A stretch of 64,000 bases of DNA from Flavobacteriales bacterium (GTDB lineage Bacteria; Bacteroidota; Bacteroidia; Flavobacteriales_C; GCA-002722245). Position 1 is the first letter of the stretch, and each line of letters opens with the position of its first letter. Position numbers and translations under genes: made by a program. This document shows, piece by piece, positions 41,595-43,712 of the stretch. The notes under the pieces are model-generated. The model was not told where the DNA came from, ran no database searches, and saw only the letters and a program-made list of their open reading frames with translations. The DNA is taken from contig JBMTCG010000004.1 of assembly GCA_049430665.1 (NCBI GenBank), forward strand, positions 5,110-69,109. The letters run 5' to 3'.

Positions 41595-42664
41595 TTCGAT
41601 TTAACGCCCATATCAACAGTCGCCATTACCAACCAATATATTGGCATCACAATAGGATAAAGAAGAAAAATTAAAAAGTAATATCCGTGATAGTTTGAAG
41701 CTTGTGTCCCAATCACCCAATCAATAAAAGGAAAAAAAAAAACAAAGAACTCATTGGTATTAATGGAACTATTAAAGAGCCAACTATAACAACTACTGAA
41801 AACCTTTTTTTTAGATTATTTTTTCTATACTTCCTGATCAAGATAATATGATAAACAATGACTCCAATAAGCAATAAAATCATTAGTCCAAAAGGTCCAA
41901 CAAAAACCAAAGCATCAGCAAAAAAATTAACGTCAGGAGTCCAAGTCAATGAAATAAAATCTGCAGGAATCTTATTGAAATGATAATGAGAAACCAACGG
42001 CTTAACATTATCGTCTTTAACCAATCCAGACTCTAAATTAGAAATGAATTCCTCACCAAATTCAGTGCAATCAACATAAACATCAAGTGTTCCAAATGAC
42101 TTCCATTTTTTTGCTGGAGAAAGCGAATATCTAAAGGAATATTCTTTTACCCAATCACTCAAATCTAACCAAACAGTAGAATTATATTCAACAACAATTA
42201 CATGTTTCCCTTTCGGTAAATTTGTAGTGAAAAATTTTAAATCTTTGTCGGAGGCATACAATCCTTCATTATCTCTGAATGCGAAAGAGAAATTTATGTA
42301 ATTCGAAGGTGCATCACCTGCATCTATTGCATATTCAAAATCTTGCTTATTTCCCACATCAACAACACTATCTACCTGAATTTTTACCCCATCTTTCAAA
42401 ATATTAATCTCTCCACTATAGTCCATCGCATAAAAAATGAATGGAATATCAATACCATCTTCTAAAGATTCAATTTGATATTCAATTTTATAAAAGGCTA
42501 TTAAATTAGGCTTTGGAGTGATGAAAATATTTTCGTGAATAATATTGATATGCTGATTAATGAATGGAGCTGAAACACATGAACCTTCATATATTGGAGA
42601 AGCCATATTCCCCTTCACCATCGCACTCACCCCCCATCAAAATCAAAAACAATAATTTTCTCAT
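41588..42664 (-). pseudogene. Exported/membrane hypothetical protein with two homopolymer frameshifts
   Basis: Removing one G from the G6 run near 42630 joins MRKLLFLILMG to VSAMVKGNMASP (signal peptide). A shift in the T11 run near 41745 restores FIDWVIGTQASNYHGYYFLIFLLYPIVMPIYWLVMATVD...*. Confidence 0.75.
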
Positions 42665-42699
42665 AGATTAAAAGTAAAATAAAAAATAATGTGAATTAT

Positions 42700-42816
42700 G
42701 AAGAGCAGGACAATAGTACCTTCGTTACTCAGGACAACCGCTCTTAGAAAGTAGCGCTTACCCGGTTTGTCACCCGTCGGCTGACGGGCCCCGAAGGAAC
42801 TATTGTCCTAAACTTC
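42700..42816. other. GC-rich multi-stem structured element (candidate ncRNA or REP-derived element)
   Basis: 18-bp terminal inverted repeat with one mismatch (42707-42724 / 42792-42809) enclosing gacaaccg/cggtttgtc, cgct/agcg and cccgtc-ggct-gacggg stems. Confidence 0.6.
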
Positions 42817-43712
42817 TAAAATTTATGCTTCAATTTTTTATATCCAAAATATCCAACAACTGCCAAAACCCACAACCACCATACACTCATCAAGGCAAGG
42901 AAAACAACTTCAATTGTGTTCAATCCAACAGCCAATGCATCGCCAATTTTCTCATAAAAAGGAGGCTCGTAAGGCTCAATTGTTTTTTCGCTGGCCACCA
43001 ATTCTTCTTTGATGCTTGAACGTTGATACAAATAAATTTTAATGGTGCTGAAATCCACTTGATCTTGAATGCTTAAATTGGCTAATAAAGCTTGATCTTT
43101 TTGTTCTTCGGCTTGCAATAAATTGTTTTCTGCATCTACCGTTTCGTGTAATTTTGCTTTGATGTGATCGGCATTGTCTAAACGATTTTCATGAATAGTG
43201 ATTCTTTTTTGCGTTAATCTATTTGCGAGCATTTTCAAAGTCACATCATCGGCATTGATATCTCTGTAATCGAGAAATTCTACCAGTCCGCTCATTTGCT
43301 TTAGCGCATCGTCTAAGCGACTATTAGGCACTCTAATTTCAATGGTATTGTCAACTGTAAAATGAATAATTTCCTTCGATGAGTCGGCGCTTACAGGAAT
43401 TGTATTTACATAAGATATATTACTCGCTAAATTCGTGTGCGTAACAAATCCATTGTTCTTAGCAATTACATCTTCAATAGCGTAAGTAGCAGTGCGCACA
43501 TCTTTCACCTTGAATTTTAAATCGGCGGTACGCACGAATTTCCTGTTGGAATGAATATCTTCTATGGCGGCAGAAGATGACAAAGTAGAATCGACTATTT
43601 CTTGATTTTCGCTGTATGCTTTTGCATTCATATCAGCAGCTGTTTCACCAGCACAAGAAATTAATATTGCACCTACAAAAGCGCTGGTTAGAATTACATA
43701 TTTCATTTTCAT
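42816..43712 (-). CDS. DUF4349 domain lipoprotein
   Basis: Lipobox ILISC; RKFVRTADLKFKVKDV, IRVPNSRLDD, DDVTL, VDFSTIKIYLYQ; C-terminal TM. Confidence 0.85.
   Translation of the reverse strand: MKMKYVILTSAFVGAILISCAGETAADMNAKAYSENQEIVDSTLSSSAAIEDIHSNRKFVRTADLKFKVKDVRTATYAIEDVIAKNNGFVTHTNLASNISYVNTIPVSADSSKEIIHFTVDNTIEIRVPNSRLDDALKQMSGLVEFLDYRDINADDVTLKMLANRLTQKRITIHENRLDNADHIKAKLHETVDAENNLLQAEEQKDQALLANLSIQDQVDFSTIKIYLYQRSSIKEELVASEKTIEPYEPPFYEKIGDALAVGLNTIEVVFLALMSVWWLWVLAVVGYFGYKKLKHKF

Follow-up and report, generated by a model that had tools for sequence, protein, structure and literature searches.

A decayed palindromic element behind a DUF4349 gene is probably a copy of an interspersed repeat restricted to one genus of Flavobacteriales

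The structured element that lies immediately behind a DUF4349 gene in a 64-kb window of a Flavobacteriales genome (the window being the whole stretch of DNA that was analysed) is probably an old mosaic copy of a non-coding palindromic interspersed repeat, restricted to a single genus and of a kind with REPINs, BIMEs or orphan MITEs. It belongs with the ordinary repeats of bacteria, junk or regulatory, and is no dedicated RNA gene. The family to which it belongs is multi-copy, strictly intergenic, concentrated at gene 3' ends, and without target-site duplications; the two arms of its members co-vary, the centres are inverted or exchanged between orthologous copies, and the copy behind DUF4349 has decayed in place. 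To our knowledge, nearly all work on REPs and REPINs so far has been done in Proteobacteria. The family described here provides a clean example from the Bacteroidota of a vertically inherited palindromic repeat population without a visible cognate RAYT and, together with an IS481-family insertion sequence that acts as a secondary parasite and inserts only into the repeat, forms a small natural system in which the spread and recombination of repeats can be followed outside Proteobacteria.

Structure of the element behind the DUF4349 gene

The core of the element occupies positions 42707-42809 of the window, and weaker outer arms of about 10 nt on each side widen its span to 42697-42821 (Table 1). 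Its outer stem pairs AGGACAATAGTACCTTCG (42707-42724, + strand) with CGAAGGAACTATTGTCCT (42792-42809) over 18 bp, with one A/A mismatch. Within this stem are an inner stem of GACAACCG (42733-42740) and CGGTTTGTC (42763-42771) with a single bulge, a small GCTC..AGCGC helix, the hairpin CCCGTC-GGCT-GACGGG at 42773-42788, and a second AGGACAA at 42731. The two stems, the hairpin and the recurring AGGACAA had been recognized in an earlier note on this DNA, and all are borne out by the sequence and its folding, as is the description of a GC-rich island in AT-rich DNA, with a GC fraction of 0.55 in the element versus 0.26-0.42 in its surroundings. Folded as RNA, the + strand reaches -50 kcal/mol (z -5.0) and the - strand -58 kcal/mol (z -6.4), and in neither case was the value equalled by any of 200 shuffled sequences.

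Comparison of the arm classes of 81 unique copies, drawn from the same genome and its relatives, identifies the copy behind DUF4349 as a hybrid, the sole one of the set classed as an unclassifiable arm plus the third variant, and as the most degenerate of them all. One of its arms is intact and of a rarer, hairpin-bearing type, folding by itself at -7.8 kcal/mol as DNA. The other is decayed: its outer 18-mer carries one substitution (T to A), and its inner part, TTACTCAGGACA, differs from the short arm variant GTTCCTCAGGATGACA by a single substitution, in TTCC, and by the loss of 2 nt. This deletion turns CAGGATGACAACC into CAGGACAACC and thereby accounts for the internal AGGACAA. The multi-branch fold reported in the earlier note is likewise a by-product, arising because the palindrome has lost its symmetry.

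Table 1. Coordinates of the element, its flanking genes, and related loci. Numbers without a prefix are positions in the window; C and L prefixes denote contigs, and G000 is the genome that carries the element.
Feature	Location	Strand	Basis or remarks
Outer extension of decayed arm	42697..42706	-	TATGAAGAGC on + strand; weakly conserved; GAAG/CTTC pairing with 42810-42821 in folds
Decayed arm	42707..42736	-	Comparison with 81 copies and arm classes
Centre module	42737..42767	-	Commonest centre family (component 0 in centre clustering); ends pair GACAACCG/CGGTTTGTC
Intact arm, rarer hairpin-bearing variant	42768..42809	-	Arm classes; CCCGTC-GGCT-GACGGG replaces TACCTCAGGA, followed by consensus outer 18-mer
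Outer extension of intact arm	42810..42821	-	Holds DUF4349 stop codon TAG (42818-42816)
DUF4349 gene, upstream, reads into element	42816..43712	-	ORF list; Pfam PF14257, E 1.6e-19
Downstream gene, no Pfam family	41713..42664	-	ORF list and Pfam; conserved ATG at 42664-42662
Y1 loci with their own flanking repeats	C15:1516-2473, C16:15025-15780, C26:29926-30929 (G000)
IS ends at contig ends	C4:79748, C13:47689, C14:45068, C31:25187, C72:27, C92:6520, C3:44 (G000)
IS ends at contig ends	C27:32453, C68:13886, C71, C75, C120, C140 (G000)
Internal truncated IS	C32:17817-18018 (G000)
Candidate arm target sequence for IS481-family element			CCTCAGGATGACA
DUF4349 loci of relatives	L039 (G002) 1270-1730; L042 (G003) 580-1100; L041 (G001); L040 (G006)

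Flanking genes and searches for known RNA elements

The placement of the element between the DUF4349 stop codon and the next start codon stands as the earlier note gave it, although the distance of about 36 nt to the downstream ATG holds for a start at 42700; the core itself lies 6 nt from the DUF4349 TAG and 42 nt from the ATG. A run of six G residues at 42630-42635 puts the conserved ATG of the downstream gene in another frame than the long ORF (GTG at 42630). We note that this run separates a signal-peptide-like start from a 305-codon ORF and that relatives have five G residues or GGTGG at the same place; it represents either a homopolymer assembly error or a genuine frameshift.

Searching the window against Rfam 15 yielded no family at the gathering threshold (best local E-values of 4-9 under permissive thresholds), ARAGORN reported no tRNA or tmRNA, and a scan for promoters and terminators placed no terminator-like site at the element. 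The lack of a U tract and of tRNA features asserted in the earlier note is thereby confirmed. An intrinsic terminator is rejected from the sequence, which offers a GC-rich hairpin without a U tract, and the outer consensus of the family, T-rich at its 5' end and A-rich at its 3' end, is the reverse of what such a terminator has. An integron attC site is also rejected, as the ends AGGACAATAG...CTATTGTCCT are without core sites (RYYYAAC / GTTRRRY) and the copies are dispersed singly between housekeeping genes.

A dispersed family of palindromic repeats

The element is one of many. A BLAST search of its own genome (2.74 Mb in 145 contigs) returned 104 matches, which excludes a single-copy sequence, and a scan with the 18-nt arm end, allowing up to 3 mismatches, returned 99 arm matches. 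The genome has about 95 arms of the family, which make up 32 complete inverted pairs together with about 30 arms that are cut by contig ends. The family is dispersed at least 60 times behind genes, and its hosts are a few uncultured Flavobacteriales of fresh water. In annotation, the element should be treated as a repeat to be masked, and no sRNA should be called there; the family distorts ORF calls, and 25 of the 290 contig termini in this metagenome-assembled genome (MAG) end within it.

Members of the family are built from a consensus arm, AGGACAATAGTTCCTTCGGGGTACCTCAGGATGACA, placed around interchangeable centres. The canonical member is a near-perfect palindrome that reads AGGACAATAGTTCCTTCGG[G/A]GTACCTCAGGATGACA, then a centre, and then the reverse complement, with a mean ungapped stem of 37 nt; the arms are about 36 nt each, or some 46 nt when the weak outer extension is counted in, and there are at least five centre modules. 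Most copies are 96-117 nt long and further classes measure 134-138 nt. Three arm variants can be distinguished (GGGGTACCTCAGGATGACA, the shorter GTTCCTCAGGATGACA, and GGGGCCCGTCAGCCGACGGGTGACA), the first of which is found on both sides in 64 of the 81 unique copies. The five centre families have 25, 22, 8, 6 and 3 copies, and the commonest (25 of 81 copies) has the consensus ACA[A/T]ACTGGGTAAG.GCTAC..AAGAGTGGTTGT. Solo arms and tail-to-tail arm pairs also occur.

Outside the core, about 10 positions are weakly conserved as tTT[G/T]A[N]G[T][G]T (91 arms). A G is present at -2 in 48 and a T at -1 in 62 of these 91 arms, so that roughly half of the arms read GT-AGGACA; at the position of this GTAG tag the copy behind DUF4349 reads TTAG and GCAG. 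The complete element of 96 nt reaches -44 kcal/mol (z -15) when folded as single-stranded DNA. The majority arm alone folds at -2.2 kcal/mol (z +0.5); it thus has no hairpin of its own and is not a classical REP unit. The highest identity between any two assembled copies is 94%, which gives no sign of recent movement, although identical copies are the ones that would be lost at contig breaks.

Canonical U-tract terminators of this genome, at C9:20583-20620 and C21:35092-35130, share the hairpin core CCCGTCAGCCGACGGG with one of the arm variants, the one that forms the intact arm behind DUF4349. At C109:1-75 the sequence after a repeat arm is a (CACTCT)n microsatellite reaching the contig end, which seems to be an expanded form of the GAGTGAGAGTGAG motif found in one of the centre families. 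A separate palindromic family, TAATTTCAAATTTTGCGAAGCGAATTTGAAATC, is represented by about 10 arms (C32:18019-18160, and also on C7, C10 and C11). The last ~45 nt of contig C17 end in AGATCGGAAGAGCGTCGTGTAGGGAAAGAGTGT directly after a repeat arm; we take this to be Illumina adapter sequence, and hence adapter contamination in the assembly.

Distribution and genomic location of the repeat

The arm is present in five of the nine genomes of the genus and in none of 32 genomes outside it. When an arm 24-mer was compared with 185,579 species genomes (one per species), 69 stretches matched, and these belong to five MAG assemblies from lake or groundwater, all of them labelled Flavobacteriales or Chryseobacterium; the Chryseobacterium label is probably wrong. 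A scan of viral contigs and plasmids revealed no arms.

Gene context was taken from a simple ORF-based gene call (92% coding) and for complete copies only. All 28 classifiable copies are intergenic. Gaps between convergent genes hold 14 of them, against 4.2-4.9 expected (P 1.3e-5), gaps between tandem genes also hold 14, and gaps between divergent genes hold none, against 4.4-7.3 expected (P 2e-4 to 9e-3). The stop codons of genes that run towards a copy lie from 36 nt before the core to 7 nt inside it, mostly 7-19 nt before, and at 7 of 77 gene ends the repeat supplies or overlaps the stop codon. This spacing is too variable for strict targeting of stop codons, and the pattern of placement is compatible with copies that either insert into 3' intergenic DNA or survive only there.

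Spread and maintenance of the repeat

Target-site duplications were sought in 81 copies at offsets of 0-4 and with k from 2 to 5, and occur at the same rate as in shuffled flank pairs. The two arms of a copy co-vary strongly (Fisher P 6.6e-12 at position 20 and P 1e-8 at position 32), which indicates that the whole hairpin is the unit that is copied or maintained. Eight orthologous loci are common to relatives; at these the arms are kept, and the centre belongs to another family in three and is inverted in one, from which it follows that copies recombine through their arms. Filled and empty orthologous sites exist between species, although the boundaries drawn from them are fuzzy. The suggestion in the earlier note of a REP- or MITE-like non-autonomous element has thus gained substance from the ~95 arms and 32 complete copies, from the occurrence of the repeat in related species, and from an empty-like site and differing occupants at orthologous loci.

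Since no cognate transposase was found (see below), mobilization through a single-stranded hairpin is something that we infer. The family would spread as DNA via such a hairpin intermediate, and the putative enzyme would act in trans and without a staggered cut, which would point to an HUH/Y1 enzyme of RAYT-like character; arm-to-arm recombination may then shuffle the centres and the arm variants. The family could also spread and persist without any transposase, if the host recombined copies and converted them into one another while palindrome-templated repair kept their arms matched. Orthologous loci with the same arms and swapped or inverted centres, hybrid copies with two arm variants, the duplicated flanks beside copies in genomes G002 and G003, and the failure to find a cognate enzyme would all be accommodated by such a process. 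It shuffles copies that already exist, however, and fails to explain both their arrival at many unrelated intergenic sites and the occurrence of filled versus empty orthologous sites, and we think it quite improbable.

Resident Y1 transposases and comparison with known repeats

Under the preferred reading of a REPIN-, BIME- or orphan MITE-like repeat, the Y1 transposases (PF01797) are the enzymes to consider, and genes for them occur in all nine genomes of the genus, with or without the repeat family. The genome that carries the element has three, which score 107, 97 and 67 bits against NF047646, so that two (C15:1717-2283 and C16:15180-15719) exceed the NCBIfam cut-off of 80 bits for a REP-associated tyrosine transposase. 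They are flanked by inverted repeats of their own (CCGCTTAGGC..., GCGCGCTTCCAAGCGCG and TAATTAGGGACAGCGCC), which are low-copy with 5-10 matches genome-wide, and no family arm lies within 3 kb of any of the three. In G002, a genome that is 100% complete, the single Y1 gene is flanked by CCGCTTAGGC repeats and not by the repeat family. Among the matches listed for G003 and G006 there is no Y1 gene on a contig with an exact arm match, and none of the Y1 loci checked in G002, G003, G005 and G006 is flanked by the family. The nearby RAYT or IS200-family transposase that the earlier note had proposed to look for is thus not to be found: RAYT genes do exist in the genome, and none is associated with the repeat. 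We reject an association with RAYTs, as no RAYT gene is flanked by family repeats in the genomes checked. Inspection by eye of the listed arm positions of the five genomes showed no two arms that enclose an ORF at a distance of 0.5-3 kb; if a short gene did lie between two copies, its contig would come out at less than 2 kb and so be lost from a MAG.

The closest parallels are the REPINs and REP doublets (BIMEs) that RAYT Y1 transposases mobilize (Bertels & Rainey 2011, PMC3116915; Ton-Hoang et al. 2012, PMC3333891). Like these, the family has many copies, all outside genes, is confined to one clade and is shared at orthologous sites by related species; a pair of inverted units with a short spacer folds into one long hairpin, the arms co-vary, target-site duplications are absent, and solo arms and tail-to-tail pairs are present. 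Of the conserved GTAG or CGTC tag that marks one end of a REP, a GTAG-like form arises from the consensus flank in about half of the arms. The differences are equally apparent. A REP unit is an imperfect palindrome of 20-40 nt, whereas the majority arm of this family forms no hairpin and a rare variant alone has one; with 36-46 nt the arms exceed REP units in length, and the centres are modular; and in none of five genomes is a RAYT flanked by the family, the resident RAYTs carrying other, low-copy repeats. A second parallel is offered by CGTC-tagged REPs and the "TIR repeat" families (Di Nocera et al. 2013, PMC3733652), which are also moderately abundant palindromes beside coding regions and probably transcribed, and the CGTC repeats are without a dedicated transposase (PMC3733652), a point in which the present family is like them. 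In sequence it is unrelated to those families, and it is confined to one uncultured genus of Flavobacteriales and not tied to a TIRYT gene. Orphan palindromic families of a comparable kind are the ERIC/IRU elements. ERIC and Correia elements duplicate TA at insertion, whereas no such duplication is seen in this repeat.

An IS481-family insertion sequence within the arms

Fourteen arms of the family are broken at one and the same point, where ...CCTCAGGAT is joined to TGTAGAAGTTTAATATTTCGTTGACA (7 ends) or to TGTAGATGTTAACTAATTCGTTGACA (7 ends), and 13 of the 14 lie at contig ends (Table 1). They mark an insertion sequence, and all 14 true ends of this IS in the genome are inside family arms. 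The full IS was found on one metagenome contig (L112:237-1272); it is about 1036 bp long with imperfect inverted ends, TGTAG...CTACA, and has an ORF of 326 aa with rve domains, for which the best match is an IS481-family model at 200 bits, just below the cut-off of 224. Its junctions fit a 5-bp duplication of AGGAT. Contig L112 itself looks chimeric, as its two flanks match two different loci of G000. On C32, a copy of the TAATTTCAAATTTTGCGAAGCGAATTTGAAATC palindromic family truncates the IS after 202 nt, and the 49-aa N-terminus of this truncated IS has no match in Pfam or NCBIfam. A DNA search for the first 202 nt of the IS found them in none of the eight same-genus relatives, four of which carry the repeat, and the IS is therefore a recent guest and not the mobilizer of the repeat.

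Insertion into a repeat, at one position of its arm, is a habit that this IS has in common with the REP-targeting elements IS1397 and ISKpn1 of the IS3 family and IS621 and ISPpu9/10 of the IS110 family (Tobes & Pareja 2006, PMC1525189). That survey records REP-targeting for the IS3, IS110, IS4, IS256 and IS5 families (PMC1525189), and the IS481 family lies outside these five.

The same IS is the candidate parent if the family were a classical MITE, that is, a deletion derivative of a DDE-type IS that is moved by the transposase of that IS. The family has the long terminal inverted repeats of a MITE, is non-coding, and with 96-137 nt is well within the limit of 300 bp; its extended consensus TGTAGG...CCTACA has the form 5'-TG..CA-3', and the IS481-family element likewise starts with TGTAGA and ends with TCTACA. 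Beyond TGTAG, however, the ends agree at about 50% at most, as judged by eye, the IS sits inside the arms and does not have them as its own ends, and the family is without a parent IS that shares its ends. Enzymes of the IS481/IS3 type make target-site duplications, and the 81 copies have none. With the start of the IS also missing from relatives that do carry the repeat, we regard a classical MITE as improbable.

The family may instead be a true orphan hairpin element, moved neither by the resident RAYTs nor by a DDE transposase but by an unrecognised enzyme of this clade, or by a replication or repair route that acts on long palindromes, and serving as a dedicated landing pad for the IS481-family element. 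We consider this unlikely, if conceivable; were it true, the spot behind DUF4349 would be a structure-directed insertion target at gene 3' ends.

The DUF4349 locus in related genomes

The sequence behind DUF4349 in relatives bears both on the age of the copy and on its possible function. In G001 this place is taken by a GTAG-tagged REP doublet (GGTAGGGGCGAAATGCTTTTCGCCC and its inverse), and in G003 and G006 by other, unrelated palindromes. In G002 there is a different palindrome of 200 nt, after which TTAGAAGTTT adjoins ATTCTCGATTCATAAT, resembling a site without the core; further on, a canonical copy of the family, its centre inverted, lies behind a degenerate second DUF4349 3' end (75.5% over 98 nt, E 9e-14). 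This canonical copy and the copy in G000 have their left flank in common, which indicates that the insertion predates the split of the two species and that the G000 copy decayed where it stands. The unit of gene 3' end, palindrome and leader is tandemly duplicated in both G002 and G003, with a different palindrome in each unit.

These comparisons weigh on the proposal of the earlier note that the element is a structured non-coding RNA or cis-regulator, or, more broadly, a dedicated functional RNA such as an sRNA, a regulatory 3'-UTR or leader element, or the terminator of a DUF4349 operon. Its fold is strong, members of the family are enriched at gene 3' ends, and, positioned 6 nt past a stop codon and 42 nt ahead of the next start, it is almost certainly transcribed with DUF4349. 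The centres of the family, however, point in both directions relative to the upstream gene, and stem mismatches reveal no preference for G-U pairs on the sense strand (16 vs 22, not significant), so there is no sign of selection on one RNA strand. A function specific to this locus also sits poorly with ~95 arms across the genome, with the lack of an Rfam match, with the absence of a U tract in a genome that does use canonical U-tract terminators, with unrelated palindromes at the orthologous site in G001, G003 and G006, and with the finding that of the whole set it is this copy that has degenerated most. The proposal is not supported by these observations, and we judge a dedicated functional RNA very improbable.

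As a decayed member of the repeat family, the element would still fold as a stable hairpin within the DUF4349 transcript, in its 3' region or between cistrons. Its role there, by analogy with REPs, would probably be to obstruct exonucleases passively, and not that of a dedicated regulator.

We note finally that each of the five species compared has a different palindromic element right after the DUF4349 stop codon.
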